NCBI GenBank assembly: GCA_903839535.1
Contig: CAIMCT010000101.1
Coordinates: forward strand, 69-64,068
Direction of reading: 5' to 3'
Source of the DNA: an uncultured Desulfobacteraceae bacterium
Lineage (GTDB): Bacteria; Desulfobacterota; Desulfobacteria; Desulfobacterales; Desulfatirhabdiaceae
DNA length: 64,000 bases
Shown piece after piece: positions 6,253 to 64,000 of this stretch. The notes beneath the pieces are model-generated. The model worked only from the letters and a program-made list of their open reading frames with translations, was not told the DNA's origin and ran no database searches. Numbering within the stretch: position 1 is the stretch's first letter; each line of letters starts with the position of its first letter. The translations under genes and the position numbers were made by a program.

Positions 6253-6314
6253 AATTTTCATTCATGGGGGCGGCATAGATCATGCCGTGAGCGTTTCTAC
6301 CTGACACAACATTA

Positions 6315-6353: not shown

Positions 6354-6381
6354 CTTATCTCCATCTATGAATTGACAATCG

Positions 6382-7107: not shown

Positions 7108-7122
7108 GGGCTCCACCTCCGG

Positions 7123-10100
7123 TTATAGTTTGGTTACATTGACCATAAAAGCTTTGGTTTCCGGAATTCGGGTATTGGGATCACCCGCGGATGGGGTAAG
7201 CAAATTTGCGCTTTCCTCCTTGCCGCTGGCCGGCCATCGCCACCCATAATTATACGGCATCCCCACCTGATGAACAACGGTTCCGGCAATCTTCATCGGC
7301 TTGAACCGCTTGGTTACAACCGCCGTACATTCCAGTGATCCGCGCGCCGAAGACACCTTGACCCGCTCGCCATTCTTGATGCCTTTAAGGGCGCCAAGCT
7401 CCTCGCTCATTTCCACAAACATCTGAGGCGCAAGTTCCATGAGCCAGGGCTGGGGACGGGTAAGAAGGCCGGTCTGCCAGTGTTCGGATACCCGGTAGGT
7501 CGTTCCCACATAAGGGAATCTGGGATCGCAGGTTGCGAAGGTATCGGCGCTGGTGCCGTAAACCGCTGCCGTGGGGCTGGTAAACTGGGAACTCATGAAG
7601 TTCTTTTCCACCGGGCATTCCATTGGCTCGTAATGTTCCGGAAAGGGTCCGTCAAGCAATCCAGGTCCAAAAATCTGACCGAAACCATGAACGGTCATGA
7701 TAAACGGATGCTTGGCTTTGGGATCAGGCTGACCATCGGCGCCGATCAGCGGCGGCGCAGGTCCGTCAGGAACATCTCCAATCCATTTACCGTCCTTCCA
7801 TTGGATGACCCAGCGTTTTTCGTCATAAGGCTGCCCTTTGGGATCAACCGAAGCCCGGTTGTAAATGATTCTGCGATTCACTGGCCATGCCCAGGCAAAC
7901 TCCGGATACAGGCCAATTTTGTTTGGCGCATCCTCCTGCTTTTTGCGGGCCGCCATGTTTCCTTTGTCCGTATAGCTGCCGGAGTAAATCCAGTTGCCGC
8001 AAGATGTGGACCCATCGTTTTGAAGAAATGCAAAACTGGGCACCTGAGATCCCATTTTGAATTCCTGGTCGCCGACTTTGACATCCTTGACAAAAAAACC
8101 GTTGATCTGTTTGGCCACCTTATGGGGATCAAATTTGTGGTCCGTCATGTAGTCCCACTTCAGATTCAGAATCGGATCCGGGAATACGCCGCTTTCCTTG
8201 TAAAGTTCTTTCAGCTTCAAACCGAGTTCCATGATGATGTCGCCATCCGGCAGACTGTTACCAAGAGGCTTGGGGCCTGCGTACCGCCACTGCATCCAGC
8301 GCCCGCTGTTGGAAATGCTGCCTTCCTTTTCAACCGAGACACAGGCGGGAAGCATGAAGACTTCCGTGGCCACATTCTCTGGAATCATCTCGGGGCCATG
8401 CCAGAAAGAACCGGTTTCATTGTCAAAGAGATTGACGTTTACCATCCATTCGAGATTGGCCAGAGCTTTGCGTACTTTTCCTGCATTGGAGCCGCTGCAA
8501 GCCGGATTCATACCCCAGGCAAAGAAACCTTTGATACTGCCTTTGAACATCTCATCAAAGATATCCAGCCAGGAATAAGGCTTGCCTTCATCCAGTTTGG
8601 GCATCCAGGGATATCCGAATTCGTTTTCAGCAGAAGCCTTGTCTCCGAAAAAAGATTTCAGAAGGCTGACGATATATTTGGGTTCGTTCTGCCACCAGTT
8701 CAGGCTGAGCGGATCCTTGCTCTGGGCTCTGCGCTTTAGCAGATCATCCAGTTTTGCCATTTTCCCACTCGGAGCGGGAATATAGCCGGGCCAGATATTA
8801 AACAGCAGAGCCTGGTCCGTTGATCCCTGCACATTGGATTCCCCCCTTAACGCATTTACGCCGCCGCCGGCAATGCCCATGTTCCCCAGAAGGAGCTGAA
8901 TAATGGACATGGTCCGAATATTCTGAACGCCCACTGTATGCTGTGTCCAGCCCATGGCATACATGATCGTACCAGCCTTGTTATTGGCACCGGTGGCTGC
9001 GTAGGTTTTATAAACTTCCAGCAGATCCGCTTCCGTGGTACCGGTAATTTTGGAAACCAGCTTGAGGTCATAGCGGTCATAATGTTTTTTCAAAAGATTG
9101 ATGACGCACTGACTGTCCTTCAGGGTCAAATCCCTTAAGAGTGCACCTTTTTCATCCAGTTGAAATGTCCAGGTCACCCTGTCATATTTCTTGATTTTGG
9201 AGTCCCAGCCGGAAAACAGACCGTCGTTGAATGAAAAATCCTTGTTTACCAGAAAAGCGGCATTAGTGTAATTCAGAACATATTCTTCGCCAATCAGCTT
9301 GTTATCCAGAATGTATTTGATCATCCCGCCCAGAAAAGCAATATCGGTTCCGGAGCGAAGCGGCGCATAGATATCCGCTTTTGAGGATGTTCTGGTGAAC
9401 CGGGGGTCAACGTTGATGACCTTGGCACCGTTTCTCTGGGCCTCAGTCACCCATTTGAAGGATATGGGATGGTTTTCAGCAGCATTGCTTCCCATAATCA
9501 GGATGCAGTCGCTATTTTTAAGGTCGATCCAGTGGTTAGTCATTGCACCGCGTCCGAACGACTCTGCCAGAGCCGCAACAGTTGCGCTATGTCAGATTCG
9601 GGCCTGATGCTCGATATAGACCAGCCCTAGGGAACGCAGCATGGCTTGATAAATCCAGCATTCTTCATTGTCCATGGCGGCGCTTCCGACAGAGGCTATG
9701 GCCGTTGTACGGTTGACGGTCTGCCCTGAGGCGTTGGCCTCTGTAAACGAGGCATCCCGCGTGGCTTTGACACGTCTTGCGATGCGGTCAATGGCCCATT
9801 CCCAGGTAACTTCCTGCCATTTTGTCGCATAAGGCGCACGATACATGGGGTTAAGAAGCCGGTTTTCGTTTTCAACCAACCCGGCCAGCGCAGCTCCTTT
9901 GGAACATAATGCTCCCCGGTTTATGACATGGTCCGGATCACCTTCGATGTTGATGACCCGTCCGTCCCCTTTTTTACTGGTATGTACAATGGCCCCGCAG
10001 CCCACCGCGCAGTAACAACATATCGTGGTGGTTTCTTTGGCATACTTGGTCTTCAACATCTGAGCATGGACTCTGACCGGTGATAGATCAAAACCATGAC

Positions 10101-40292: not shown

Positions 40293-40476
40293 TTTGATGT
40301 AGGGCTTTGGCTTTAGGCCCTTTAGACGAGCAATTTCGTATTTCAGCAGTTGGATTTCTTCTGCCTGCTGCAGGTTGACAACTGATATTTGCTCGATAAT
40401 TCCCGACCAATTGCAAAATAACAGGAGTTTTTTCTTCATCAGGAATATTTGGCGTTTGTAAATTAATTAAGCTCAC
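40293..40476 (-). pseudogene. Frameshifted N-terminal remnant of a transposase-like protein
   Basis: MSLINLQTPNIPDEEKTPVILQLVGNYRANIS, then after a +1 shift VVNLQQAEEIQLLKYEIARLKGLKPKPYIKP. This is a leucine-zipper plus KG-x-KPKP pattern that I associate with IS transposase N-termini. It abuts element C3. Confidence 0.35.
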
Positions 40477-40661
40477 GGGCTATTTCACTAACAAACAAAA
40501 TTAATATTGTCCAGATATTTCTCATCTTTTATAAGAACTTTTTGAGATGTTACTAATTTACGTCTAAGAAAATTTGCTTGAATTGAGCATTGGCGGTACT
40601 TTAACTCCTGCAAGTGGTAAAGCCAGGCTATAGGATGAGTTTGTCCAAAGTCCAAATGATG

Positions 40662-42236
40662 TCACTGGTGCAGTATCATAATATCATCCGTGATGGTAAA
40701 GAGCTGTTCCAGACGGGTCAATTGCAGCAGCTTTAGCACTCCGTCCGTGGGTGCGCAGAGGATGCAGCTCTTGCCGTGTGCTATTACGGCCCGCTGAATT
40801 TTGACGAACAGCACCAGTCCGGAGCTATCAACAAAATTGAGTGCATGCAGATCCAGTAAGCAGTTGTGACCCGAAACCGCTACGCAAATTGCAGTTATAT
40901 CGAAGTTTTTGAGGCTAAGAGCGTCCAGCCGTCCCTCTATCGTGACAATGGCGGTACCATCTTTTTTGTATGTAACGGAGGATGGAAGTTCCTTCCCCGC
41001 AATTTTGGCTTGGTGCAAATCCATCGAATTCAGATATTGCTTCGCCAGTTGAAGATCGCGGAAACTATTATCTCCTATAAGATCGTCCAGTCTGCTTAGA
41101 GCAAATGTTCGGCGTATATCGTCATTCATACCGGCCATCAACAGCACTTTATTCAGATTCAATGCAGTGCGCCACATCTCAACAATAAACCCAAGCCCCA
41201 TGGAATCTATAAAAACCACCTGAGTGAAATCAAGGATCAGGGCATGTTCACTCTGCCAGATAGTTTCAATAGTGCTGCTCAGATTTCGCACTCCGAGGGC
41301 ATCAAGCCGCTCCGGAAGCGTCATCGATAATTTATCCACTTCAGAAGAAAGTAGCTGTTCAGGCTTTGTCGGTTCCACCTGCATTTTGGGGGCCCTCCAC
41401 GTTGGCTGATAGCAAGTAATAAGCCTTCGCTGTCGGTGATAATCCATAACTGCCGGCCAGAGTTGCAGACCAAAGGTCATGATTGCTCGCAAATAGCGCC
41501 GCCAAAGCCGTATCGGTTCGACCGCCAGTCGCCAAAGCCACTCCAGTCCGATCCGCTGTATTGCCAGCGGTGCGCGACTGATATCACCGGCAATGAAGGA
41601 AAAGGTTCCACCGATGCCAATGGAAAGCGGAACCTTCAGACGGGTGACGTTTCGTCTGAACCAGAGTTCCTGCTTGGGATTGCCGAAAGCAATTAAAAGG
41701 ATATCCGGTGCTGCGGCATTCACATCCGCCACGATAGCCGCGTCCTCTTCCTCATAAAATTCAAGATGTTCCCCTTCTGTATAGACTATTGGAGACAAAA
41801 CGCCGGCAATCTTCAGGCCTGGGTTGCGCTTCAGCAAGATATTGGCTGCTCGTTCTGCGGAATTGGTCTGCCCACCCAGAAAGTAGAGCGAAAGCCCCTC
41901 TCTCGCCGCCCGTGTTGCCAGAGCAGGAACCATATCGGCCCCTGTTACACGTTCCGGCAGAGGGTTTCGCAGCATCCTGGACAGCCAGACAATTGGCATT
42001 CCATCCGCTGTTACCAGATCAGCACGCCGCAGGATATCCAGCAGCTCGGCATGGCGAATCTCGCTTAATCGTTTGCCCATGGTTTGTACTATGAAATCCA
42101 CATTAACGGTTGCTACCAGCTTCGGTATTCCATCCCGGCGTGACTCCGCCACCAGGTCGACAATTTTATCCATCGCCTGGGATAAAGTCAGGCTATCGAT
42201 CGGCACCCCCAGGATTATGACACTGTCTCTTTGCAT
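40662..42236 (-). CDS. WecB/TagA/CpsF-family glycosyltransferase fused to two C-terminal STAS domains
   Basis: ILGVPID, ADLVTADGMPIVW, FLGGQ, FGNPKQELW and GLEWLWRLAVEPIRLWRRYL are TagA/WecG hallmarks. Then LDFTQVVFIDSMGLGFIVEMWR and LDLHALNFVDSSGLVLFVKIQR, which are STAS cores. Confidence 0.85.
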   Translation of the reverse strand: MQRDSVIILGVPIDSLTLSQAMDKIVDLVAESRRDGIPKLVATVNVDFIVQTMGKRLSEIRHAELLDILRRADLVTADGMPIVWLSRMLRNPLPERVTGADMVPALATRAAREGLSLYFLGGQTNSAERAANILLKRNPGLKIAGVLSPIVYTEGEHLEFYEEEDAAIVADVNAAAPDILLIAFGNPKQELWFRRNVTRLKVPLSIGIGGTFSFIAGDISRAPLAIQRIGLEWLWRLAVEPIRLWRRYLRAIMTFGLQLWPAVMDYHRQRRLITCYQPTWRAPKMQVEPTKPEQLLSSEVDKLSMTLPERLDALGVRNLSSTIETIWQSEHALILDFTQVVFIDSMGLGFIVEMWRTALNLNKVLLMAGMNDDIRRTFALSRLDDLIGDNSFRDLQLAKQYLNSMDLHQAKIAGKELPSSVTYKKDGTAIVTIEGRLDALSLKNFDITAICVAVSGHNCLLDLHALNFVDSSGLVLFVKIQRAVIAHGKSCILCAPTDGVLKLLQLTRLEQLFTITDDIMILHQ

Positions 42237-42284
42237 GTCAGTATGCTCCCTTTCAAAAAAGAATTATCTAAACAATGGATTTAA

Positions 42285-43274
42285 TCAGCTCCGTCGATTC
42301 ATCACCGGTCCTATCAGCGGCGACAGCAAATAACGCACAACTCCAAAAAACTGGGGATAGACAATAAATGAGGCATGCACGGCATAGACCAGAGCTACAC
42401 TGAAACTTGCGCTACAGCGCTTCATGGTGGCAGGAATGCGGGCAAGCGGTTTCAGAATCAATGCGAGCGCCAAGAGCAGAGCGATTGTAAACTGGTTGAG
42501 GATCACGCCAAGCAGGATCAGCAGCAGCGGCAGACAGGCTGTAACACAAATTCTCAGAAGTTCACGCAACCAGAGTTTTTCCGGTGAATGCAGATAGCGC
42601 AAACCCACCTCGGCGTAGGCATGTCCACTGCGGAAGGCGCGTTTCCAGTATTGCATAAATCTCGTCATGTTCAGGTCATGCAGCGTCATGTCGGCTGCAA
42701 TACGCAAGATGATCCACCCCTGCTGACGCAGGCGGCAGCTCAGGTCTGGTTCTTCTCCGGCCACCAGCAGTTCATCAAATCCACCGGATGTGGCCAGCGG
42801 TTCCCGTCTTGCCAGAAAATCCCCCCCGAAATAGCGGCAAGGTCCCTGCTCGTAGAACCACTCCACCGATGCGATTCGGTGATACTGATTCAAATCGGGG
42901 CGACGCTCGCTACGCTTGCCGCAGACCGCCACAATTTTTTTGTCAAAATGGGCAAGAGCAGTTTTCAGCCAGTCGCGGTGTATAAGCGTGTCGGCATCAA
43001 GGAACTGGATGAAGGGCGCTGTCGCCTCAAAAATACCGGCGTTACGCCCTCTGCCGGGGGTCGGCGAAGGGTGGTCGAGTTGTATCACGCGAATACCAGC
43101 ATGATTACCGATTGTAACGCTGCGATCTGTTGAGCCGCCATCGACATAGATGATGTTCAGCAATTCTTGCGGATAATCGGCATCACGAATTGAGGTTATG
43201 CAGTCATACAAGTAGCGCTCGACATTGATACCGATGATAACAACGTCAATGGGTGGTAATGGATCAGGGAACAT
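42285..43274 (-). CDS. Family 2 glycosyltransferase with C-terminal membrane segments
   Basis: IDVVIIGINVERYLYDCITSI...VDGGSTDRS...LDADT. ATG at 43274 is preceded by AGGAAAG. Confidence 0.8.
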   Translation of the reverse strand: MFPDPLPPIDVVIIGINVERYLYDCITSIRDADYPQELLNIIYVDGGSTDRSVTIGNHAGIRVIQLDHPSPTPGRGRNAGIFEATAPFIQFLDADTLIHRDWLKTALAHFDKKIVAVCGKRSERRPDLNQYHRIASVEWFYEQGPCRYFGGDFLARREPLATSGGFDELLVAGEEPDLSCRLRQQGWIILRIAADMTLHDLNMTRFMQYWKRAFRSGHAYAEVGLRYLHSPEKLWLRELLRICVTACLPLLLILLGVILNQFTIALLLALALILKPLARIPATMKRCSASFSVALVYAVHASFIVYPQFFGVVRYLLSPLIGPVMNRRS

Positions 43275-43327
43275 AGCCGCTTTCCTGTGATGTGGCGGTT
43301 TTGTGGGCTGGAGAGCTACCCCCACGT

Positions 43328-44935
43328 TTATTTCGGAAATACCTTGGCCGGAATTCCGACGGCGATATGGTTATCCGGCACGTTGATCATCACCACCGAA
43401 TTAGCTCCGATATCCACATTGTCGCCAATGGTGATATTTCCCAATACCTTGGCGCCGGCTCCGATGTTGACGTTATTACCGATCTGCGGAGCGCATGGCT
43501 CGTCAATTCGTTTAAGTCCGACGGTGACACCGTTTCGGATAATGCAGTTGTCACCAAAGCTGGCGAAACCGCTGACTATGATGTCACCAAAATGGTCGAT
43601 GCGAAAACCCCTGCCCACCGGTGCCTCGCAGGGAAGCTCTATGCCGGTCAGTATCTGAACTATCTTGTAAAAAAACTTGTAGAGCAGGGAAAACGGCTTC
43701 CTGCCCAGCCCGTTATTGATGGTATAGCGCCAGCGGCCAAAACGGTAGATCAGCATTACCCATAACCCCTGCCGCCCCCAGTCGCCGAAATAGGTGCGCA
43801 GATCCCGTTTGATGTTGGTCATCAGGTGCCGGTCTTCATTGATAATCCGGTTTTGTGGGGCCTCGCGGGGCAGCCCTGTGGTTGATGTATCTACCGGTGC
43901 ATCCAGAGGGGAAGCATTTTCCTGCGGTGGTGCAGGCATTCCTTCTCCGGCCAGCTCTTTTCCGTATCCGTCATTTTTTAGTGTCGCCATGATCAGCTCC
44001 ATTGTTAGGGCGGCATCCGCACTCTTGATATGTGCCTGCTCGTCCCTCTTGAACGAATTTTTTAGCCTGATAACACCTTTCCAGAACAGCTCCACCCCTG
44101 CAGCGCGCAGCACAGCACACAGACCGTAATTGGAGCGATAGTAGCGCAATTCGCTCTGTATTCGCAGATATGTCAATTGCCGTCCCGCCTTGGTTACCTT
44201 GCCGGTGGATTCGGAACTCTGTCCCCCCAGGTGGATACATCTGGTATGTGGGTAGAAGACCACAGGCCAGCCGGCCTTTGCAGAAAGGCGACAGAACTCA
44301 ATCTCTTCAAAATAGAGAAAATAGCGTTTTTCGTTCAGAAGGCCGATGGTCTCAATCACCTCGCGCCGCACCAGGAAATATGCCCCCGGCACCCAGCCAA
44401 CCACTTTTTCGGTGGAGTGATCCCACCAACTGTAGTCCGGCCCACCAAGAAGGGGAGAATTGGGGAACTTGTCGGCGATTCCGGAAATGACCAGAAATTT
44501 GGTCCATGGGGATGGGAGCATCCGCGCCGACGGCTGCAGCTTGTCGTCCAGCCCTACCAGCTTGACACCAAGTATGCCCCACGTCGGGTTTTCCTGCATA
44601 GCCTTGATCGTGGTGGACAGGGTGTCCGGGAAAAGATAGGCATCGGAATTGAGTAGCAGCAGAAACCGTCCGCTCGCCGCGCGGATACCTACATTGTTGC
44701 CACCTGCGAACCCCAGGTTTTTTTCAGTCCGGATCAGCTTCACCAGTGACCCATATATCTCTTGTTCGGTCGCCACCATATCTGCTGAATTGTCACTGGA
44801 GGCGTTATCGACGACGATCACCTCCATGTCGAGCTTCGCACCGTACTCCATAACCCGCTTCAAACATTCGCGGGTGATGTCGCGGGTGTTGAAACTGACG
44901 ATAATTACGGAGAGGAGTTTATCAGCCGCTTTCAT
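43328..44935 (-). CDS. Family 2 glycosyltransferase fused to a hexapeptide-repeat (CysE-like) acetyltransferase
   Basis: N-terminus LSVIIVSFNTRDITRECL...VDNASSDNS. C-terminus LWVMLIYRFGRWRY...GIELPCEAPVGRGFRIDHFGDIIVS...IGNNVNIGAGAKVLGNITIGDNVDIGANSVV. Confidence 0.8.
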   Translation of the reverse strand: MKAADKLLSVIIVSFNTRDITRECLKRVMEYGAKLDMEVIVVDNASSDNSADMVATEQEIYGSLVKLIRTEKNLGFAGGNNVGIRAASGRFLLLLNSDAYLFPDTLSTTIKAMQENPTWGILGVKLVGLDDKLQPSARMLPSPWTKFLVISGIADKFPNSPLLGGPDYSWWDHSTEKVVGWVPGAYFLVRREVIETIGLLNEKRYFLYFEEIEFCRLSAKAGWPVVFYPHTRCIHLGGQSSESTGKVTKAGRQLTYLRIQSELRYYRSNYGLCAVLRAAGVELFWKGVIRLKNSFKRDEQAHIKSADAALTMELIMATLKNDGYGKELAGEGMPAPPQENASPLDAPVDTSTTGLPREAPQNRIINEDRHLMTNIKRDLRTYFGDWGRQGLWVMLIYRFGRWRYTINNGLGRKPFSLLYKFFYKIVQILTGIELPCEAPVGRGFRIDHFGDIIVSGFASFGDNCIIRNGVTVGLKRIDEPCAPQIGNNVNIGAGAKVLGNITIGDNVDIGANSVVMINVPDNHIAVGIPAKVFPK

Positions 44936-54773: not shown

Positions 54774-55694
54774 TTGAACGGCACCTTACGACCTGTTGCA
54801 AGTGTGGTAATTCCCGTCTTCAATACCTCAAAGTATCTTGAAAAAGCGGTTGATTCCGTTCTTGGGCAGTCCTTCACCGATTTTGAGTTGCTGCTGCTTG
54901 ATGATGGCAGCACCGATGAATCATCCGCGATTCTTGATCGGTACCAGGCGGCGGATAGTCGCTGCATTGTCCATCACTGGCCGAACAGGGGGATTATTGC
55001 AACGCGGAATGAGGGGAACAGGCTGGCCAGGGCTGACATCATCATCTTGATGGATTCCGATGATATCTGCATGCCGGACCGCTTTGCGAAGCAGATTCGG
55101 TATCTGGATGAAAACACGGACTGTGTTGCTGTTGGCTCCAGGATTCTGTTGATTGATTCGGAAGATATGCCCATCACCGTGATGGGAGATAAATTCAGTC
55201 ATGAGGAAATCGATTCTACAAACATTTCCGGAGTTGATGCCAGTTTTTTTCAGCCGGCGGTTGCGCTCCGTAAATCCGCCGTGGAACAGGTGGGTGGTTA
55301 CCGTGCGGAATATCCCTGCGCCGAGGATTTTGATCTTTTTCTTCGTCTGGCTGAAGTCGGCAGACTGACCAACCTGCCGGATGTGCTGCTGAAATATCGG
55401 CAGCACCTGTCCAGCATAGGGTATAGTCACGGGGACAAACAGGCCAATTCCGCCATGCGTGCGATCAAGGATGCCTGCCTGCGCAGAGGACTTGATTATA
55501 AGGATTTGCAAGCTCCCGGACAGCCGGTAGTAGATCGGCGGAATGCAGCAGATGCCTATATCAAATGGTCATGGTGGGCGTTAAAGGTGGGTTATCTGCC
55601 GACATCCAGAAAATACGCATTAAAGGCGCTTAAAAAGCGGCCTCTGAACAGGGAAACCTGGAGACTTTGCGCCTGCGTACTGCGGGGACATTAA
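54774..55694 (+). CDS. Family 2 glycosyltransferase
   Basis: ASVVIPVFNTSKYLEKAVDSVLGQSFTDFELLLLDDGSTDES...MDSDD. TTG start at 54774, 7 nt after AGGAGAG. The longer track ORF overlaps wzx. Confidence 0.8.
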   Translation: MNGTLRPVASVVIPVFNTSKYLEKAVDSVLGQSFTDFELLLLDDGSTDESSAILDRYQAADSRCIVHHWPNRGIIATRNEGNRLARADIIILMDSDDICMPDRFAKQIRYLDENTDCVAVGSRILLIDSEDMPITVMGDKFSHEEIDSTNISGVDASFFQPAVALRKSAVEQVGGYRAEYPCAEDFDLFLRLAEVGRLTNLPDVLLKYRQHLSSIGYSHGDKQANSAMRAIKDACLRRGLDYKDLQAPGQPVVDRRNAADAYIKWSWWALKVGYLPTSRKYALKALKKRPLNRETWRLCACVLRGH

Positions 55695-56272
55695 CGCTCC
55701 CGGATCACTTTCGCCGGTATGCCGGCGGCGATGCAGTTTGCCGGTACATCCTTTGTCACTATGCTGTTGGCACCTATGATTGCGCCGTCACCAATGGTTA
55801 CCCCCGGAAGAATGCAGGCACCACGCCCCACCCACACATCACTGCCAATGTGAATTGGTTTGGCGTCATGGGGCTGGCTGCACACCAGTTCTCCTCGCGC
55901 AATGCCGTGATTGGCATCCCGAATCGAAACAAATTCCCCCACCATGGTGAAATCACCTATGGCCACCTCCGTGTAGGCGCAGATCGTCGCTCCCCGGTTT
56001 AGTCTCACCTCACGACCTACCCTGATTATACCCCCGTTGTTGGTGGTGAACTCCGTCAGGTCGCCGATACGTGATTTTTCACCGATCTTCACATTCCTGG
56101 TTCCAAGCACCGTTACATCTCCATCAAATTGTACAGTGGGATCAAGACCGTGAATCCGGGCTGCCGCCCGTCCATTGTTCCAGATGCGCCCCCAGTAATA
56201 GCTGAACGGGCTGAGCAGACGGAATGGGAGGGAAACTATCGTGCATGCAATTGATAGGATGAAGTTTTTCAT
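55691..56272 (-). CDS. Hexapeptide-repeat O-acetyltransferase
   Basis: IGSDVWVGRGACILPGVTIGDGAIIGANSIVTKDVPANCIAAGIPAKVI. Confidence 0.85.
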   Translation of the reverse strand: MKNFILSIACTIVSLPFRLLSPFSYYWGRIWNNGRAAARIHGLDPTVQFDGDVTVLGTRNVKIGEKSRIGDLTEFTTNNGGIIRVGREVRLNRGATICAYTEVAIGDFTMVGEFVSIRDANHGIARGELVCSQPHDAKPIHIGSDVWVGRGACILPGVTIGDGAIIGANSIVTKDVPANCIAAGIPAKVIRER

Positions 56273-56353: not shown

Positions 56354-57403
56354 CTACTTTAGCAGCACATCTTCCAGCATGTCTGCTGAATACTCCCATG
56401 AGAAGGCATCCGCCCGGCGCAGGGCGGCGGCGCTCATGCGGGTCAGTCGTTCCTGATCTTCCAGAATGTGCAATACTCTGTCGGCAATGGTCTGAGGATC
56501 GCCCACATCCACGATGTAACCTTCAACACCATCGGTTATTATGTCCCTGATCCCTTTGTTGTCGGAGGAAACAATCGGACACCCCAACGAGATCGCCTCC
56601 AGGGCAGGCAGGCAGAATCCCTCGGTGCTGGATGCCGTCATCCATACTTTTGTGTTCAGATAGGTGCGGCGAATGTTCTCCTGGGTGGGTGTGCGCTGAA
56701 ACCTGACATCATGAAAGGGGAAATCCGGATACTTGACCAAGTCAGGGTTCTCGGAGCCGAACATGACAATCTTAAGGCCGGGATGCCGCTTCCGCAGGAT
56801 GGTCAGAGCCTCCAGCGCTATATCGGTGCGCTTAAGTGGCACCGTAGAATAAAGCAGTCCGACATCATGGGTCCGGTTTATCCCTTCGCCGCTGAAGCAA
56901 GAAAGAAAAAAATCCCGTCCGTTGGGAATAACCGGGATATCGTTCTCTCCGGAAAGCGCCTCTACCAGCTCCTTTAACCAACTGGAAATCACGATTTTTT
57001 TCAAGGGGAGCCGGAAGGTTGCATCCACATCCTCCCCCTCCCTTGCAAAGACCTTTTCATATCCCTGGATTAGGTAGAACTTGCGTCCGCAGCGTTCCGG
57101 CAGTTCCGCTGCAATCTGGGCGGTTTGGAAAGCAGTGGCGATTATGCAGTCGCTGTGGGGCAGATACTCCTGTGCAATCTTTGGCACTTCAATGAGCTTA
57201 CCGCAAAAGGCATCCAGGTGATCCCTCTCGTTATGGATCATACGCCTGATCTTGCGGCGCAATTGCTCCCTGAAGGCAAGATCGCGTTTGGGGTAAACAA
57301 CGGTTACCCGGTGTCCACGCCTGATCAGGGCGTTTCCGTAGCAGGCGACTACCCGCAAGCCGCCGGCAATTCCCTTAAATGGTACGAGAAAAGTTATATC
57401 CAT
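56354..57403 (-). CDS. Family 4 (GT-B) glycosyltransferase
   Basis: STEGFCLPALEAISLGCPIVSSDNKGIRDIITDGVEGYIV motif. Confidence 0.8.
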   Translation of the reverse strand: MDITFLVPFKGIAGGLRVVACYGNALIRRGHRVTVVYPKRDLAFREQLRRKIRRMIHNERDHLDAFCGKLIEVPKIAQEYLPHSDCIIATAFQTAQIAAELPERCGRKFYLIQGYEKVFAREGEDVDATFRLPLKKIVISSWLKELVEALSGENDIPVIPNGRDFFLSCFSGEGINRTHDVGLLYSTVPLKRTDIALEALTILRKRHPGLKIVMFGSENPDLVKYPDFPFHDVRFQRTPTQENIRRTYLNTKVWMTASSTEGFCLPALEAISLGCPIVSSDNKGIRDIITDGVEGYIVDVGDPQTIADRVLHILEDQERLTRMSAAALRRADAFSWEYSADMLEDVLLK

Positions 57404-58730
57404 AATTGATCTCTCCTAAAATCCTTGGAAATTTGGCCTGTGTAGTTTCCCACGCGCCAGCCTGTATCAGCCCCTCACTGAATCCGAGGATGATGTAAAA
57501 AAACTGCACTGTCTGAGTGCCGGAATATACGGTGGCCTGTGTAAATAGCGCTGTCAGGATGCTGGCGATCATACACCAGGCCAGGCGGATTTCCTTGCTG
57601 GACGGGTCGCCTCGTATAGAAAAAATGATCAGCCTTGCCAGAATCCAGGTTACGCTGACAATATAGGCATACAGTGAGGCCTTGCCCGATGACAGCACGA
57701 TCATCAGGTACTCGTTGTCCACCGAAGCCTGCCCCTTTACCACCGGAACGGTGAAACGTCCCCATCCCAGAAGCGGCTTTTCGGCAATCACTTCCTTGTA
57801 ATTGTCCAGCAGTTCCGTGCGATATGCGGCATTGCGCTGATCCTCGGTGACAGCGTTGGCCCTGTCCACATTGACATAGGAAATCGCTTTAGGGAGGATG
57901 AATATGCTGGCTACGGCCATCAGGCTCAACAGAATCATTGTGGCAAGCCCCTTGTTCTGCGACCAGCCATACCAGATGAGGACCAGGCCAAGGAAAATGC
58001 CGATGATCGGTGCTCGCGATATAGACGATATCCCGCCACCAATGCAGATAAGGGTGATCCAGAACCCATGTTTGCGCTTCTCGAAGTAGTCGTTCTTCCA
58101 GAGCCAGACCGCTAACGGTACAAACATGGTGTAATAATAGCCTGCACAAATCGGATGCCCGAAGGGACCGGAGGCCCGTTTCAGTCCGCCGCGCTTCATG
58201 CCGCCGCCCCACGGAACCGATTTGGGCCAGATCCTGCGGAGAGGCTCGTCGAACACGTTGAACCAGAAGCGGAATTCGATCATCTGGAAGATCGCTACCA
58301 CCGCCCCGGTCAGGATAATGATTCGGAACATCTTTATCCGGCTCTCCGGGTCCATAAACCAGGCGCGGGCCATGATGAACGGAAGCAGGCGGATGGTGAT
58401 ATCGTTGTAGAGAATCTTCTGGGCCTCCTTGTAGGCGCTGTTTTGCCATTGCCCGCTGAACACGATTACAAGATGCACCAGAATCAGAACATCCGCTGGC
58501 AATAAGCGGTACCCATCGGCCTGACGGTTGACGATCCATGAAAAGGCGATAGGAAGCAGCACGGCGCTCCAGAATCCCATTTCGGGAATGCCAGCCACAA
58601 TCTTGGTTTCGTAGTAGATCGGAACAACTGTAAGAACCGGCAGAAAGAAATAGAGGAACAGCTCCTTGGGCTCCTTGTAGAGCAAAAGGCCGATGGTGAC
58701 AAGCATTAGAAGCAGTATGCTCTTATCCAT
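57375..58730 (-). CDS. O-antigen ligase / Wzy-type polymerase family membrane protein
   Basis: About 10-12 TM helices with a large loop. SGPFGHPICAGYY and SRAPIIG segments are typical of the Wzy_C family. Confidence 0.7.
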   Translation of the reverse strand: MDKSILLLMLVTIGLLLYKEPKELFLYFFLPVLTVVPIYYETKIVAGIPEMGFWSAVLLPIAFSWIVNRQADGYRLLPADVLILVHLVIVFSGQWQNSAYKEAQKILYNDITIRLLPFIMARAWFMDPESRIKMFRIIILTGAVVAIFQMIEFRFWFNVFDEPLRRIWPKSVPWGGGMKRGGLKRASGPFGHPICAGYYYTMFVPLAVWLWKNDYFEKRKHGFWITLICIGGGISSISRAPIIGIFLGLVLIWYGWSQNKGLATMILLSLMAVASIFILPKAISYVNVDRANAVTEDQRNAAYRTELLDNYKEVIAEKPLLGWGRFTVPVVKGQASVDNEYLMIVLSSGKASLYAYIVSVTWILARLIIFSIRGDPSSKEIRLAWCMIASILTALFTQATVYSGTQTVQFFYIILGFSEGLIQAGAWETTQAKFPRILGEINYGYNFSRTI

Positions 58731-58736
58731 CCGGTA

Positions 58737-60920
58737 TTATCCTCTCCTGAACAAACGCCGTTTTTTCTCCCGACCCAGGATGTGATAGGCCTGAAGATTT
58801 TTGCGCAGATAGCCGCCCCGAACGAACCCGACCCGATTCAAAACAACGGAGATGACTTTGACACCGCAGTCGTCCAGCATTGACATGGAGCGCATCAGTT
58901 GACCCCAAAGCGAATGCCGCGCAAGCGCAGTCAATATAACCACGTCGGCGATGCCGGCGATCGCCTGGGTATCTGCTGAAAGCAGGATGGGGGGCAGGTC
59001 GATTACGATCATGTCGAATGAGTTTTTCAGCTCTTCAAGAAGTGTTCTCAAATCCTCGCTGGAATGCGCACGTCCCCCGTGCATCTCCGCGGCGCTTGGG
59101 TAGAAGGTGAAGGGGAATTCCTCAACTGCGTCATCGAGAAAACCCTGGGGAATATTGTCGCCTGAGGCGGTTTTCATGATGCTCTTCAGTGGTTCGCGAC
59201 TTCCAGCAGGGTTGCGGGTGTTCAGGTCGATGTACAAACGGCGATTTCTTGGTACGGTACTCATGGCCAGAATATTCATGGCCAACATGGTAACGCCACA
59301 ACCATCCCCCAGTCCGGTGAAGGCGAACACTTTTGAGCCGTGCTCCAGCCGTTCCCGGTCCATCTTGACAACGATCTCGGCCAGTTGCTGAGTCATGAAG
59401 GAGCGTGGATGTCGTCTGTGCAGAGAGTAAAGATCGCCAATCGGGATTTTCTCCTCGTCGGTCCGCAGCACAAAGCCGGTCAGCGGAAACCCGAGAATCT
59501 TTTCCATGTCGATGGGCCGCTTGATGCGACTATCGATCATATCTCGCCCGATGACCACGCCGACACCGGCAAGAAGCGATGCGATAAAGCAGATCGGAAC
59601 CATTTTGCCTCGTGGATCAACGTTGGGATCTTCCGGTTTTTGCGCCCATGTTGTAACCGTGATACGTCCAGGCGAGGCGAACTCCATCTGAATTTGGTCT
59701 GTACGCTCGTTGATCCGGGTAAGACTTTCCATCAGCCGCTGATTTTCCTGGCGTTTGGTCTGAGCGTGCAGCACTGCTGTGTTATATTCCAGTATCTCCT
59801 TCTGTGATCGATCAAGCTCCTTCAGGAGCAGTTTTTCGGCATCCTTCGCAGTTTGGTAATCAACACGGGCGCTTTCGACGGCGAGTTGGTTGTCTTCCAG
59901 CAGTTTGTCCCGCACGACCTTCTCCTGGTGTTTCGTGGTCCATTCCAGTAGTCGCTCCACCTGCCCCTCCATTTCCTGCTGGCGCTGCTTCAGCAGGATG
60001 TGGCGGGGGTTGTCCACTGTTAATCCCACCATAAGATCATTGATTTCCAGAATACGACCATTGATCTGGTTGATAAGGCCGGACACCCCTTGTCCGCCAT
60101 CTATCCGGTCGGCCACCTGCCCGGAGAACGGCATCTTCTTCAGTATGTCCCCCTTGGCATTCAGAGCATTCATGCGGCTCTCGGCAATGATCCGCTCAGC
60201 CACCAGCTTGTTGTATATCTTCTTCAGGTCGGCGAACGACTCGAAATAGATGTAGAGATTTTTCTCTTCGGTGATTGCGGTTCCATATTTACGGGAAATC
60301 TCCTCCAGATTGCGATATCCTTCATCTAACTCTTCTTGTACTTTCTGTCTTTCCCGGGTCAACACGTCCAGTTTGTAACTGTCCTGATTGTGGGTGTTTG
60401 CCTCGATTGAATTGATATACCCATTGATAACGCAGTTGATCATTTCCGCCAGGCCCTCGCTGCGTGTGCCCTCCATGGAAATGGTGATGAGCTGGGTGTC
60501 CCGGATCTGCACTACCTTGATGCGGCCGTTAAGGCGGCTGGCGGCTGATGTCATGGATTCACGGGGAAATACCCATTTGAATCCCTGGGATTCGTAGTTT
60601 TTGATGGCCCATTCCAGAATCGGATAACTGGTGATCACCTTGACCTGGGTTCGCATCCAGTCTTCAAAAGAGTGGATAAAACTGCTGTCCTCCACCCGGT
60701 AGAGTATCTTGGGCATGTACGGATTGATGTAGATCAGTCCTTCAGTCCCGTATCCGGGCTTTTTCTTGAGGATAACGTAGGGAACGGTGAGCACAGTACC
60801 GATCAGCGTGATGGCGATTACGATGTGCAGGTACTCGATAATTGCGCCGATCGGATTGAACGGTTTGCTGAATGTGCGCTTCGGGCGCTGAATCGGCTGG
60901 CTGGTCAATTCATTTACCAA
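58737..60920 (-). CDS. Polysaccharide co-polymerase (Wzz/GumC-type) with degenerate C-terminal P-loop domain
   Basis: N-terminal TM segment, long coiled-coil periplasmic region, second TM segment, then an ATPase-like domain with Walker B-like DMIVIDLPP but GLGDGCGVT in place of a GK[ST] Walker A. Confidence 0.75.
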   Translation of the reverse strand: MVNELTSQPIQRPKRTFSKPFNPIGAIIEYLHIVIAITLIGTVLTVPYVILKKKPGYGTEGLIYINPYMPKILYRVEDSSFIHSFEDWMRTQVKVITSYPILEWAIKNYESQGFKWVFPRESMTSAASRLNGRIKVVQIRDTQLITISMEGTRSEGLAEMINCVINGYINSIEANTHNQDSYKLDVLTRERQKVQEELDEGYRNLEEISRKYGTAITEEKNLYIYFESFADLKKIYNKLVAERIIAESRMNALNAKGDILKKMPFSGQVADRIDGGQGVSGLINQINGRILEINDLMVGLTVDNPRHILLKQRQQEMEGQVERLLEWTTKHQEKVVRDKLLEDNQLAVESARVDYQTAKDAEKLLLKELDRSQKEILEYNTAVLHAQTKRQENQRLMESLTRINERTDQIQMEFASPGRITVTTWAQKPEDPNVDPRGKMVPICFIASLLAGVGVVIGRDMIDSRIKRPIDMEKILGFPLTGFVLRTDEEKIPIGDLYSLHRRHPRSFMTQQLAEIVVKMDRERLEHGSKVFAFTGLGDGCGVTMLAMNILAMSTVPRNRRLYIDLNTRNPAGSREPLKSIMKTASGDNIPQGFLDDAVEEFPFTFYPSAAEMHGGRAHSSEDLRTLLEELKNSFDMIVIDLPPILLSADTQAIAGIADVVILTALARHSLWGQLMRSMSMLDDCGVKVISVVLNRVGFVRGGYLRKNLQAYHILGREKKRRLFRRG

Positions 60921-61935
60921 GAGCGTAACCAGTTATGAAGAGTTGGGTAAAGGGGTTGATCATACGCAGGTAGTAGTTGTAATTGGCGATCCCTTTGCGG
61001 GGGACGAAGATTATGTCATTTTTGGCCAACATGATATTGCCGGAGAAGTCGGCTTTATTAATCATGCTGTCCAGGCTGACTTTGATTGGCTTACCGGCGT
61101 CGGCACCCTTGCTGCGAACCAGCAGAATGCTGTCGGTAGTTGCATTTTCCGTCGGCCCGCCGGCCTTTGCAACTGCATTAAGAAGCGACTTTACGCTGTC
61201 GAGATCGAATGCTCCAGGCTTGCTTACTTCGCCAAGGACATAGACGTTAGCCTCGTCAGGGTCGGGAACATAGATGGTGTCGTTTCCGGCCAGATCCATA
61301 TTGCGACCAGTTGACCCACCTCGCAACATTTCATCCAGCGAGACCCAGAGCATCTGATCTTTCCCCCGGATGATGGCGCAATTGGACGGCGGGCGGGCCT
61401 GCGAACCGCCAGAGAAAACGCCGGCCCTGGACAGAGCCTCCAGAAGGTTCGGACGACTGCGGAATTTGACCGTTCCAGGTATCATTACCTTCCCAAGTAC
61501 ATGCACCTGATTGTTCTCGAACGACTTGATGCGCAGCGTTAATGCTGGCGTATCAAAATAGCGCCGGAGAGATTCCTTGAGGATCGTTTCAACTTCAGTA
61601 CGGGTTTTCCCGATCACTTTTACCTCGCCTGAAGGATAAATCGTCATGGTTCCATCGGGACTTACAGTCTGCTCACATGCAACTTCCGGCGATGTTGGAG
61701 ACAGAACCTCCACCACATCTCCAGGTCCCAGCAGGTATTCACGATTTAACCCGGCCTCAAACGCCTTCAACACCTCCAGCGGAGCAATCATCACCTCCGG
61801 TTGATCAGGTGAAGCCGCTATCCCTTTCACCGGCATGTTGACTGTGGCCGGTAGATTGGCGCATGCAAGCGGCAGCAGGCAGAGAAAAAACGAAAATGCA
61901 ATGCGGATATGCAACGAAGCAGAAATCTTGATCAC
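60910..61935 (-). CDS. Polysaccharide export outer-membrane lipoprotein (Wza/SLBB family)
   Basis: Lipobox LPLAC. YLLGPGDVVEV (Poly_export motif). Two SLBB-like repeats (PGTVKF..., YVLGEVSKPGAF...). Confidence 0.8.
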   Translation of the reverse strand: MIKISASLHIRIAFSFFLCLLPLACANLPATVNMPVKGIAASPDQPEVMIAPLEVLKAFEAGLNREYLLGPGDVVEVLSPTSPEVACEQTVSPDGTMTIYPSGEVKVIGKTRTEVETILKESLRRYFDTPALTLRIKSFENNQVHVLGKVMIPGTVKFRSRPNLLEALSRAGVFSGGSQARPPSNCAIIRGKDQMLWVSLDEMLRGGSTGRNMDLAGNDTIYVPDPDEANVYVLGEVSKPGAFDLDSVKSLLNAVAKAGGPTENATTDSILLVRSKGADAGKPIKVSLDSMINKADFSGNIMLAKNDIIFVPRKGIANYNYYLRMINPFTQLFITGYALGK

Positions 61936-62345
61936 CCATTTCCTTCGTTCAATCTTTTGATCATGGTAAGACGTTTCCAGCCAGGAAAGTTCGCGATGGT
62001 CACTTCATCCATCAATTTTCGAATAATATAGATACCATAGCCCCCTGTGGCGGCAACCTCAAAATCAGGATCCGATATGTCTTCAAGATTCAACTCATCG
62101 CCCTGATCATCCACGGTGATGATAACCATCTGCGTATCCCACGAAAACCCGAGGCCGACTTTTCCGCCGGTCTGACCATGCCGGATAGCATTGGTCAATG
62201 CCTCGCTAACTGCAAGCGATATGTTGTACCCCAATTGCGGTGGCGGTGAATCACCCAGTATCTCACGGATGACATCATCTGTGAATTGGGCGGCAACGCG
62301 CAGGGACTCCAGCTCGGATGACAACTCTATAGTTCTTTCTTTCAT
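61932..62345 (-). CDS. RsbW/SpoIIAB-like anti-sigma-type serine kinase (GHKL ATPase)
   Basis: SLAVSEALTNAIRHG (N-box), ITVDDQGDE and TGGYGIYIIRKLMDEV (G-box). Its stop overlaps the Wza-like start (ATGA). Confidence 0.8.
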   Translation of the reverse strand: MKERTIELSSELESLRVAAQFTDDVIREILGDSPPPQLGYNISLAVSEALTNAIRHGQTGGKVGLGFSWDTQMVIITVDDQGDELNLEDISDPDFEVAATGGYGIYIIRKLMDEVTIANFPGWKRLTMIKRLNEGNG

Positions 62346-62353
62346 GTCTCTAA

Positions 62354-62471
62354 TTTACCGTGAAAATACTTTTAAACCACGAAATACACGCTCTTGTGTC
62401 GGCTGAAATACACGAAAAAATGTTCTTTGCGTCTTTGCGTGAGAAACCCTTATGCCGCACTGGGGTGCGGC
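62354..62471 (+). repeat. Repeat family A, copy A4 (longest, with terminal GCCGCACTGGGGTGCGGC hairpin)
   Basis: TTTACCGTGAAAATACTTTTAAACCACGAAATACACG...AAATACACGAAAAAATGTTCTTTGCGTCTTTGCGTGAGAAACCC. Begins 9 nt 5' of the kinase start codon. Confidence 0.9.
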
Positions 62472-62514
62472 GGTACCGGATATTAGCCATTCATAATTCA
62501 TAATTAATCTGTGC

Positions 62515-62856
62515 TTATTCGTTTGTAATTTCCAACGTGGCGGCGGTCGCAGTTTCATAAATATCAAATAGCCGGTGCAGACGGGTAAGTTCAAAAATTG
62601 TATGTACCTCCGGAATAAGTCCGGCAATGCGGATTTCACCACCCTCCTTCACTACTGTGCGAAGAACGCCAACCAGTGCGCCCATACCAGAGCTGTCGAT
62701 AAAATCTACATGCGCCATATCAAGGACAATCCTCTTTTTTTGTGCATCCAGCAACAGCGAGATGACATTCTTGAAATCGCGGGACCCGAGGGCGTCAAAG
62801 CGGCCATTCATGGAAACAACAGTAAATACTCCGTCCTGATTATGCGTTATAGACAT
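62515..62856 (-). CDS. STAS-domain anti-sigma-factor antagonist (RsbV/SpoIIAA-like)
   Basis: 113 aa. VVSMNGRFDALGSRDF...LDMAHVDFIDSSGMGALVGV, with the conserved phospho-serine DSSG. Confidence 0.85.
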   Translation of the reverse strand: MSITHNQDGVFTVVSMNGRFDALGSRDFKNVISLLLDAQKKRIVLDMAHVDFIDSSGMGALVGVLRTVVKEGGEIRIAGLIPEVHTIFELTRLHRLFDIYETATAATLEITNE

Positions 62857-62868
62857 GTAACCTCCATT

Positions 62869-64000
62869 TTAAAGTGGCCTTCGTTCAATAGCAAGAAGTG
62901 AAATATCATCATCAAAAAAATCGTTTCCACGGTGTTCTGCAATAGCACGCCTGAGACGATTCATAAGCTCATCCAGTGGCAGATTGCGCCCGGAACAAAT
63001 TACTTCCTGAAGCGCGTCGTCACCAAACGCTCTTGTGTTCGCTATTTTATCATTTTTACCGCGGCATTCGGTAATTCCATCGGAATACAGAAAAAGACGA
63101 CCACCAGGTTCAAAACTGAACGACACATCAACAAAAGAGGCGTCAGGAACGAGACCTATAGGAAAACCGCCGCCTTCGATTATCCGAACTGCTCCATCCG
63201 ACGACTGATAGATAGGGGGTGGGTGACCTGCCTGAGTAACAGTAACGCTTCCATTTTGCAGATCAATGGTTCCGTACACCATTGTAAAGTACTGCATATT
63301 CTCTTCGTAGCTCATAAATCGCTTGTTCAGCGCCAGAGCTACATTGGCAGGTGAATGCAAGGAAATCATCGGATTTTTCCTGCGTTCGGAGGAATCGTGT
63401 CGTATCTGCTCCGAAGTCCCATACAATTGCAAGTGGGCATAAGGGGAGAGAACCCTGCTCAATGTCGTGGAAAGCAGTGCAGCCGGTATCCCATGACCAC
63501 TTACGTCTATCAGATAAAAATTCAGGTGATTCGTATCAATCTGGAAGATATTGAAAATGTCGCCGGCAATAAAAGTGGAAGGGGTAAAAAGCCAGTCAAA
63601 ATTGAAGCCAGGCAGGGTAATGCTCTTGTCTGGCAACATGGTTCGTTGAATCTGGGCTGCCGCTTCAAGGTCCATTTTGATGGATCCGTACATTTCATTA
63701 AGTTTCAGATTCTTTTCATCCAGCTCACGGTTGGCCTGAATCAGTTGCCGTTCAAGAGTCACAACCCTCGCAGCAGCATGCAGCCGTACCTTCAGTTCCC
63801 TGAAATCAACTGGTTTGGATATGAAATCATCCGCCCCGGCCTCCATGCCGAGGACAAGGTCTTTCTTGTCACCCTTGGCAGTCAGCAGAATCAGATAGGT
63901 ATAGCCGGAAAACTTGGAGGAACGGACTCTGCGACAAAGTTCCGGTCCATCCATGCCGGGCATCAACCAGTCGGTCAGGACGATCTCGGGTCGTTCTTCC
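62869..64000 (-). CDS. Response-regulator receiver fused to PP2C/SpoIIE phosphatase (5' end outside the window)
   Basis: The reading frame stays open to the window edge (…IVLTDWLMPGMDGPELC…KPVDFRELKVRL is the REC C-terminal half). This is followed by a coiled linker and a SpoIIE-type domain (AGDIFNIF, YLIDVSGHGIPAA, LFLYSDGITE). Confidence 0.85.
   Translation of the reverse strand, partial: EERPEIVLTDWLMPGMDGPELCRRVRSSKFSGYTYLILLTAKGDKKDLVLGMEAGADDFISKPVDFRELKVRLHAAARVVTLERQLIQANRELDEKNLKLNEMYGSIKMDLEAAAQIQRTMLPDKSITLPGFNFDWLFTPSTFIAGDIFNIFQIDTNHLNFYLIDVSGHGIPAALLSTTLSRVLSPYAHLQLYGTSEQIRHDSSERRKNPMISLHSPANVALALNKRFMSYEENMQYFTMVYGTIDLQNGSVTVTQAGHPPPIYQSSDGAVRIIEGGGFPIGLVPDASFVDVSFSFEPGGRLFLYSDGITECRGKNDKIANTRAFGDDALQEVICSGRNLPLDELMNRLRRAIAEHRGNDFFDDDISLLAIERRPL

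Follow-up and report, generated by a model that had tools for sequence, protein, structure and literature searches.

What does a partner-switching set act on when it is embedded in a polysaccharide locus and no sigma factor is encoded nearby? This question is raised by a stretch of 64,000 nucleotides (nt; hereafter the window), which corresponds to positions 69-64068 of contig C101 (CAIMCT010000101.1; 64,316 nt) in a metagenome-assembled genome (MAG; GCA_903839535.1; 5.66 Mb in 580 contigs) of an uncultured Desulfobacteraceae bacterium, whose relatives are lake-water Desulfobacteraceae or Desulfobacterales MAGs according to their record titles. At the right end of the window, the genes of a response-regulator phosphatase, a STAS protein, and an RsbW-like serine kinase (hereafter the trio) lead on the minus strand into the genes of exopolysaccharide (EPS) export. 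An earlier note on this DNA described the trio as a sigma-less partner-switching set coupled to EPS export, with a logic like that of the Vibrio fischeri syp locus, and this description is strengthened by a conserved order of the trio, Wza, Wzc, and Wzy genes and by a kinase clade confined to EPS loci. The answer that we favor, with moderate confidence, is that the trio is a partner-switching-like phospho-switch on the Wzx/Wzy-type EPS pathway of the same locus, working post-translationally and not via a sigma factor, and that a WecG/TagA-family glycosyltransferase with two STAS domains (TagA-2xSTAS) is its probable substrate. It draws on the domains with their catalytic motifs, on a gene order that is conserved, on the lack of a sigma factor nearby, and on the co-distribution of the trio with TagA-2xSTAS. 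The term partner-switching-like is used because neither a cognate sigma factor nor the architecture of SypE was found for the trio.

The Phosphatase, STAS, and Kinase Trio

The genes on which the argument turns are listed below. The domain calls here and throughout are Pfam and NCBIfam profile matches on the open reading frames (ORFs) of the window, and they bear out the minus-strand gene order and the domains proposed in the earlier note.

62869..64000, minus strand, continuing to about 64125: response-regulator phosphatase with a receiver (REC) and a SpoIIE-type PP2C domain (PF07228, 139.3 bits; PF00072, 56.8 bits)
62515..62856, minus strand: free single-domain STAS protein of 113 amino acids (aa) (PF01740, 70 bits; TIGR00377, 75.2 bits, cut-off 53.45)
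61932..62345, minus strand: RsbW/SpoIIAB-like serine kinase of 137 aa (HATPase_c_2, PF13581, 66.6 bits)
60910..61935, minus strand: Wza-like outer-membrane polysaccharide export lipoprotein of 341 aa (Poly_export, PF02563, 52.1 bits; SLBB_2, 70.7 bits)
40662..42236, minus strand: TagA-2xSTAS, a WecG/TagA-family glycosyltransferase with two C-terminal STAS domains (PF03808, 196.7 bits; PF01740 in two stretches)

The three protein families of canonical partner switching, i.e., the PP2C phosphatase, the STAS protein, and the GHKL serine kinase, are each present with the expected motifs. The phosphatase gene extends 125 nt past the window, and the full-length protein of 418 aa, as read from the contig, has the receiver Asp52 and the SpoIIE metal-binding motifs, with DVSGHG at 207, SDGITE at 348, and DDDISL at 405. 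Its closest solved chain is 3eq2, itself a REC-PP2C response regulator (E 2.3e-36). The free STAS protein carries a putative phospho-site, D54-S55, in the motif FIDSSG, and the chains closest to it are those of TM1442 and SpoIIAA. The N box (E48, N52), G1 box (D80), and G2 box (G102, G104) of the kinase are all intact, and these columns are invariant across an alignment of eight relatives.

Coupling to the Export Genes and Conservation of the Locus

The kinase gene and the Wza-like gene overlap by 4 nt: the stop codon TGA of the former and the start codon GTG of the latter share the letters GTGA at 61932..61935 on the minus strand. The overlap had been noticed before, with its letters read as ATGA; the length was right and the letters were not. 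An overlap of identical length follows the kinase gene in six loci, and its letters are ATGA in four of them (G008, G014, G007, and G011); therefore, the argument for translational coupling is unaffected by the correction. The earlier observation is partly confirmed, being real apart from this one misread codon.

The order REC-PP2C, STAS, kinase, Wza, Wzc, Wzy, and GT4 glycosyltransferase is kept in four relatives (G007, G008, G014, and Ja_bin-5855), and the contig of another, G012, stops inside the Wza gene. Identities of the proteins to those of the relatives' locus range from 63 to 96%. There are more complicated cases. In G011, the kinase orthologue (79% identity) is joined through the 4-nt overlap to a phosphomannomutase gene, which is followed by ManC, acetyltransferase, GH44, Wza, and Wzc genes, that is, by a different EPS locus. 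In Ja_bin-5855, a sugar nucleotidyltransferase gene (NTP_transferase/hexapeptide; L048 5550-6704) is inserted between the REC-PP2C and STAS genes, overlapping the phosphatase stop codon by 4 nt. This MAG is titled Geobacteraceae, yet its genes are 72% identical to those of the present genus.

The company kept by more distant kinases was examined in 80 loci from reference genomes, collected as the best matches to the query. A maximum-likelihood tree was made of 72 free-standing kinases, of which 70 came from the surveyed loci and the other two from the window and G007. Eleven EPS-locus kinases form a single clade in this tree (ultrafast bootstrap 98, SH-aLRT 86), with one label change, a value as low as which was reached in none of 500 shuffles. 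Because the sample consists of best matches to the query, the fair claim is that every kinase close to that of the window sits in an EPS locus. The clade also holds a second architecture, shared by two Chlorobiota MAGs, one Desulfobacterales MAG, and one Rhodospirillaceae MAG (L053, L055, L063, which is the same as L040, and L056): a TagA-Bac_transf fusion, Bac_transf, STAS, a hexapeptide/Bac_transf-like protein, a second STAS, the kinase, GT2-type glycosyltransferases, an acetyltransferase, Wza, and Wzc are encoded in this order. The near identity of this architecture in the three groups suggests that the regulated locus was transferred horizontally as a whole. In the Chlorobium locus, genes for a histidine kinase and for a phosphatase of REC-PAS-SpoIIE architecture are additionally located upstream. 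Taken at the level of gene content and order, this comparative evidence supports a link between the trio and polysaccharide synthesis.

The same evidence bears on whether the trio regulates something unrelated and merely adjoins the export genes. The genome encodes about ten each of STAS proteins and SpoIIE-type PP2C proteins, along with no fewer than six RsbW-like domains, and among so many some are bound to adjoin operons of any kind. Against such a chance neighborhood, the 4-nt coupling is conserved, a gene for an EPS precursor is interleaved with the trio in Ja_bin-5855, and one clade spanning three phyla unites the EPS-locus kinases. Furthermore, with RsbW-like genes numbering six or seven over 5.7 Mb, we roughly estimate a chance of about 5% per genome that a kinase gene lies within 20 kb of any one gene, yet one is seen near TagA-2xSTAS in three separate families. 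Chance adjacency, already disfavored, is very improbable.

A Candidate Target Among the Glycosyltransferases

TagA-2xSTAS had been pointed out in the earlier note as a visible candidate target, and the comparison of genomes speaks in its favor. The two fused STAS domains have D-S motifs with Ser345 and Ser471, which are conserved in five orthologues down to 41% identity. The three STAS domains counted earlier, one free and two fused to TagA, are all there, and each keeps the putative Asp-Ser phospho-site motif. Among the 16 genomes compared within the genus, orthologues of the kinase and of TagA-2xSTAS are found in exactly the same six (6/6 versus 0/10), and they share a contig wherever contigs allow. 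G011 retains both genes in its rearranged locus. Contig C21 of G011 also encodes a PAS-rich SpoIIE phosphatase of 855 aa and a second free STAS protein (65% identical), located 5.5 kb from TagA-2xSTAS.

Outside the genus, a sample of 400 genomes of the phylum contains TagA with two STAS domains in five more genomes and TagA with one STAS domain in two. Only two of these seven genomes, G275 and G245, have informative contigs and a nearby kinase. In G275, which belongs to another family, a REC-SpoIIE-HATPase_c_2 fusion gene is followed co-directionally by BacA (undecaprenyl-diphosphatase) and then TagA-2xSTAS, and no free STAS gene was seen in the 20-kb stretch fetched. In G245, a free-standing pair of STAS and kinase genes is located 6-7 kb from TagA-2xSTAS with a REC-GGDEF gene in between; by path length this kinase is nearest to the EPS-locus kinases, but it has a long branch. 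Membership of the G275 kinase in the EPS clade was also considered and rejected, as it groups with the fused REC-PP2C-kinase type instead. From co-occurrence within the genus and proximity in G275 and G245, TagA-2xSTAS is a probable candidate substrate of the kinase and phosphatase.

The Proposed Switch and Its Main Rival

The switch that we favor would operate as follows. The RsbW-like kinase would phosphorylate serines of STAS domains, namely, Ser55 of the free STAS protein and most likely also Ser345 and Ser471 of TagA-2xSTAS, and the phosphorylation would hold the early lipid-linked sugar-transfer step of the TagA/WecG enzyme off. The REC-PP2C phosphatase, activated once a histidine kinase phosphorylates its receiver Asp52, would strip the phosphate, so that synthesis would be switched on. 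The free STAS protein may be a competing substrate that ties up the kinase, as in a true partner switch, or it may provide a second output in trans. The pairing of enzymes with substrates, whether phosphorylation switches synthesis on or off, and what the free STAS protein does are what we infer, with the sign taken by analogy from Anabaena All4160 (see below).

Transcript contigs offer a partial view of these genes. Two lake metatranscriptomes (X11 and X15) hold related contigs, and the regions 59000-64000 and 40400-43400 of the window were covered. Two contigs (61171-62147 and 61638-62269) bridge the kinase/Wza junction, two others (62621-63058 and 62585-63032) bridge the phosphatase/STAS junction, and one (40656-42140) corresponds to most of the TagA-2xSTAS gene. 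An operon running across the repeat that separates the STAS and kinase genes, as envisaged earlier, is in this way bridged at the junctions on both sides, and nothing crosses the repeat itself. Co-transcription of the trio and the export genes is weakly indicated, in that the contigs are compatible with it and do not demonstrate it.

Several points weigh against the proposed switch. The depth of the transcript contigs is flat at about 9-10 over the regulator, export, and TagA genes, and the contigs have no strand information; the flat depth may reflect DNA carry-over and not expression. No RNA or DNA contig crosses the repeat, where all of them break. The gene of TagA-2xSTAS belongs to a different transcription unit at the opposite end of the locus, 20 kb away from the trio. 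The 6/6 profile amounts to less than six independent events, because the whole locus is gained or lost as a block within the genus. The Chlorobiota-type free STAS proteins must act in trans, because no STAS-fused enzyme is found there. The kinase domain of G275 belongs to another lineage, the fused REC-PP2C-kinase, and its nearest counterpart in the present genome is an enzyme encoded on contig C422; therefore, the C422 enzyme could be the true partner of TagA-2xSTAS. Descent of the fused STAS domains from free STAS genes, in the manner of a Rosetta stone, was likewise tried and dropped, as the tree gives no fusion/fission signal and places the fused domains in a clade by themselves. A grouping of fused with free EPS STAS domains has no support in the tree and is not rejected by the approximately unbiased (AU) test (p-AU 0.087).

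The C422 enzyme has a setting of its own. Positions 256-7193 of this contig (locus L165) encode an OmpA-like lipoprotein, a REC-SpoIIE-HATPase_c_2 fusion of 541 aa, a STAS protein, Bac_transf, a hexapeptide/Bac_transf-like protein, and an ATP-sulfurylase/APS-kinase (PAPS synthase). Because the REC-SpoIIE-kinase and STAS genes are located directly upstream of a Bac_transf priming transferase, this is taken as a second partner-switching module of the genome, and it may control the priming of a polysaccharide that is possibly sulfated.

Many of these points meet in the main rival of the proposed switch, a SypA-like wiring, in which the free STAS protein would be the sole substrate of the kinase and phosphatase and itself the output. 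Its unphosphorylated form would bind and activate an EPS component, either a glycosyltransferase of the priming or an early step or the catalytically dead Wzc-like protein described below. The STAS domains fused to TagA would be left to a different kinase, for example, the C422 REC-PP2C-kinase, or used for docking only. In V. fischeri, SypA is a downstream component whose target is still unknown (PMC10120452). The architecture shared by the Chlorobiota and Desulfobacterales MAGs, with two free STAS genes and no STAS-fused enzyme, is as this wiring would have it; so are the kinase beside TagA-2xSTAS in G275, which groups with C422 and not with the window kinase, and the position of the C422 REC-PP2C-kinase and STAS genes directly upstream of the Bac_transf priming enzyme. 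However, the kinase and TagA-2xSTAS have an identical distribution in the genus, including G011 with its otherwise differing locus; a free-standing pair of STAS and kinase genes occurs near TagA-2xSTAS in G245, even if the affinity of its kinase to the EPS-locus kinases is judged by path length on a long branch; and the phospho-serine motif is kept in both fused STAS domains down to 41% identity. On balance, we regard the SypA-like wiring as unlikely.

Absence of a Sigma Factor Near the Trio

The closest solved chains of the kinase are RsbW (6m36) and SpoIIAB (1th8), which are anti-sigma factors. This brings in an indirect output, in which the kinase would be the anti-sigma factor of a distant sigma factor, or the STAS protein would act on FlgM or a diguanylate cyclase as HsbA does, so that EPS would be reached via transcription or cyclic di-GMP. 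A FliA/WhiG sigma factor encoded in the genome, and the REC-GGDEF gene between the STAS-kinase pair and TagA-2xSTAS in G245, would fit such an output. However, the kinase scores 43.8 bits on the RsbW equivalog model, far below the cut-off of 145, and the scores of the trio on the RsbW, SpoIIAB, and SpoIIAA equivalog models are all far below cut-off. The kinase clade tracks EPS loci across phyla, and not flagellar or stress genes.

The genomic surroundings also argue against an indirect output. A search of the whole genome for Sigma70_r2 found four sigma-70-family genes, none of them on C101 or on its neighbor C443; the sole group-3 sigma factor among the four is the FliA/WhiG one. No gene for a sigma factor, FlgM-like protein, or GGDEF protein is found in the locus or on the neighboring contig. 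Upstream of the trio in relatives, no sigma factor is found in the stretches fetched from G008 and Ja_bin-5855, the contig of G014 ending about 2 kb past REC-PP2C. The earlier statement that no sigma factor is encoded in the locus is upheld for C101, C443, and the region to the right of the operon in syntenic relatives. It must be added that a sigma-70 gene is located within 10 kb in only 4 of the 80 surveyed kinase loci; because of this rarity, a missing sigma factor is normal for the kinase family and unremarkable alone, and the same count tells against the kinase as an anti-sigma factor. Sigma-54 activators gave no match among the ORFs scanned between 40 and 64 kb, the rest of the window not having been searched for them. 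Taken together, an indirect output is quite improbable.

C443 was reached through G012. C101 stops in a palindrome 248 nt to the right of the window, and a G012 contig spans this right end and matches C443 of the present genome at 93.6% identity; C443 is on this basis the probable right neighbor of C101. The last letters of C101 and the first of C443 (1-30) are reverse complements of each other: GGAGTCGGCATCTTGCCGGCTGC. This palindrome can form a hairpin and is the probable cause of the break in the assembly upstream of the REC-PP2C gene. Besides a small ORF and the gene of an unknown protein of 853 aa, C443 carries genes for an SNF2 helicase, a deacetylase, and a SIR2 protein. Neither a sigma factor nor a histidine kinase is encoded on it, and the expectation that a cognate histidine kinase would be met to the right of the window was not borne out on this contig. 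Upstream of the trio in G008 and G014 there is a divergent gene for a CHASE-GAF-PAS hybrid histidine kinase, and in Ja_bin-5855 that of a HAMP-PAS hybrid histidine kinase overlaps the phosphatase start by 4 nt. An orthologue of the CHASE hybrid kinase was sought in the present genome, where many paralogues at about 50% identity were found, none of them clearly orthologous.

The Repeat Between the STAS and Kinase Genes

A repeat had been placed between the STAS and kinase genes in the earlier note, and it is found there.

62346..62514: spacer of 169 nt between the STAS and kinase genes, consisting of a dispersed repeat with a 37-nt core (62354-62390) and short tandem motifs

The spacer gives 102 blastn hits genome-wide. 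Its core has 56 genomic copies at five or fewer mismatches, ten of which are located within 150 nt of a contig end, which indicates that the repeat breaks assemblies. The contig depth is 400-900 in the repeat bin, compared with about 18-24 nearby. The short tandem motifs are AATTATG and CGCAAAG units. The insert is missing from G007, G008, G014, and Ja_bin-5855, whose STAS and kinase genes adjoin or overlap each other; among the relatives compared, it is confined to the present genome and the 94%-identical G012, which has a longer form with an extra palindromic insert, and the insertion is therefore regarded as recent. On the coding (minus) strand of the spacer there is no intrinsic-terminator-like site, no Rfam family matches the spacer, and its fold is no more stable than that of shuffled sequence (z 0.32). 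A function of the repeat was considered and set aside, the spacer having neither a terminator-like site nor an Rfam family nor an unusual fold.

Polymer Synthesis and Export Genes

Downstream of the Wza-like gene, the minus strand continues with the following genes, and a flippase is encoded in the rest of the locus.

58737..60920, minus strand: Wzc-like polysaccharide co-polymerase (PCP) of 727 aa (chain-length-determinant and tyrosine-autokinase models, all weak and below cut-off)
57375..58730, minus strand: Wzy-type polymerase of 451 aa (Wzy_C, PF04932, 39.5 bits)
56354..57403, minus strand: GT4 glycosyltransferase (PF00534, 86 bits)
55691..56272, minus strand: hexapeptide-repeat acetyltransferase (PF00132, 52.4 bits)
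Rest of the locus: Wzx flippase (Polysacc_synt_3, 150.4 bits)

A GH5-like hydrolase and five more glycosyltransferases are also encoded there, besides TagA-2xSTAS. The Wza-like protein has a signal peptide ending in LPLAC and scores 128.4 bits on TIGR03027, below the cut-off of that model. With a Wza-type exporter, a PCP/Wzc protein, Wzy, and Wzx, the set of the Wzx/Wzy pathway is complete in the locus. The genome has four Bac_transf priming genes, on C422, C186, C546, and C506, and none in the C101 locus; a WecA-type primer was not searched for.

The Wzc-like protein looks like a pseudo-kinase from its residues. Its P-loop reads GLGDGCGVT (residue 536), in which Val replaces the Lys of Walker A, and this P-loop is kept in G008 and G007; a C-terminal tyrosine cluster or Tyr-rich tail is missing from the protein, likewise in both relatives. 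Because the Lys-to-Val replacement and the loss of the tyrosine tail are conserved in relatives, the usual control by tyrosine phosphorylation at the Wzc step is probably missing.

A wider reading would combine these elements with the proposed switch. One kinase/phosphatase pair would set three STAS modules, and the switched partner would be a glycosyltransferase in place of a sigma factor. The unphosphorylated free STAS protein would capture the kinase, whereby the two STAS domains of TagA would become dephosphorylated and the enzyme active. This serine-phosphate switch would stand in for the tyrosine-autokinase cycle that a Walker-A-dead Wzc cannot run, and the C422 module and the trio would gate step 1 and step 2, respectively, of one lipid-linked pathway. 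As a whole, the combined reading is doubtful and is put forward tentatively. If it is true, the long-sought target of SypA-type STAS proteins would, in many phyla and as a general rule, be an early glycosyltransferase. The five-domain set is compact and testable in Escherichia coli for both the output of sigma-less partner switches and the target of SypA-type proteins. The locus may also help explain why genomes of this kind carry about ten STAS/PP2C modules alongside very few sigma factors.

Comparison With Known Partner-Switching Systems

The same PP2C, STAS, and GHKL serine kinase families and the same phospho-serine motif are found in the RsbU/RsbV/RsbW and SpoIIE/SpoIIAA/SpoIIAB systems of Bacillus subtilis, to which the closest solved structures belong. 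In contrast to them, the present module has no cognate sigma factor, is located among polysaccharide genes, and is joined to them by translational coupling.

In the HptB-HsbR-HsbA system of Pseudomonas aeruginosa, a response-regulator PP2C phosphatase and a STAS protein control a biofilm-related output and are fed by hybrid histidine kinases. HsbR is a fusion of REC, PP2C, and kinase domains, and the targets of HsbA are FlgM and HsbD, so that HsbA acts on FlgM or a diguanylate cyclase. A likeness is seen in G008, G014, and Ja_bin-5855, where hybrid kinases adjoin the trio. However, the fused architecture of HsbR is found here only on C422 and in G275 and not in the trio, and the targets of HsbA have no counterpart in the locus.

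The syp locus of Vibrio (Aliivibrio) fischeri is closer. As in syp, the functions of a single-domain STAS protein, a kinase, and a phosphatase are encoded within an EPS locus, alongside genes of the Wza and Wzc type; the phosphatase would be gated by a receiver domain, and control would lie below transcription, here as there. The free STAS protein SypA is controlled by SypE (PMC10120452). SypE is, however, one protein with the order kinase-REC-PP2C, whereas the kinase and REC-PP2C are encoded here by separate genes with the STAS gene between them. No regulators of the SypF/SypG sigma-54 type are seen among the ORFs scanned from 40 to 64 kb, and unlike syp, the present locus offers a STAS-fused enzyme as a visible candidate target.

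The closest experimentally defined precedent, with SypE/SypA next to it, is the HenR/Alr3423/All4160 module of Anabaena sp. PCC 7120, which the earlier note, citing only Vibrio syp, did not mention. In this cyanobacterium, the REC-SpoIIE protein HenR and the RsbW-like kinase Alr3423 act on Ser74 in the STAS domain of All4160, a STAS-Bac_transf glycosyltransferase, and phosphorylation inactivates the enzyme (Harada, Matsuoka, and Ehira, Mol Microbiol 2026; PMC13555669). The authors described STAS-sugar-transferase fusions as rare outside cyanobacteria and as a lineage-specific strategy (PMC13555669). Both modules have a REC-SpoIIE phosphatase, a free-standing RsbW-like kinase, and a STAS-bearing polysaccharide glycosyltransferase with a candidate phospho-serine; no sigma factor is involved, and the output is enzyme activity, presumably so in the present case. 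There are differences, too. The enzyme here belongs to the WecG/TagA family of second-step transferases and has two C-terminal STAS domains, whereas that of Anabaena is a priming Bac_transf enzyme with one N-terminal STAS domain. A free STAS protein is additionally encoded here. The genes of the three regulators stand together here, in translational coupling with Wza-Wzc-Wzy, while those of Anabaena are scattered, and the present module is encoded in a Desulfobacterota MAG.

Direct control of a polysaccharide enzyme by a partner switch was first shown in 2026, in one cyanobacterium, and was called lineage-specific. An enzyme-level switch of polymer synthesis that does not run via a sigma factor has so far been shown experimentally only in a cyanobacterium and Vibrio. 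The present locus would extend the same logic to Desulfobacterota, with relatives in Chlorobiota and Alphaproteobacteria, with a different enzyme family, and with free and enzyme-fused STAS domains encoded in one gene cluster.

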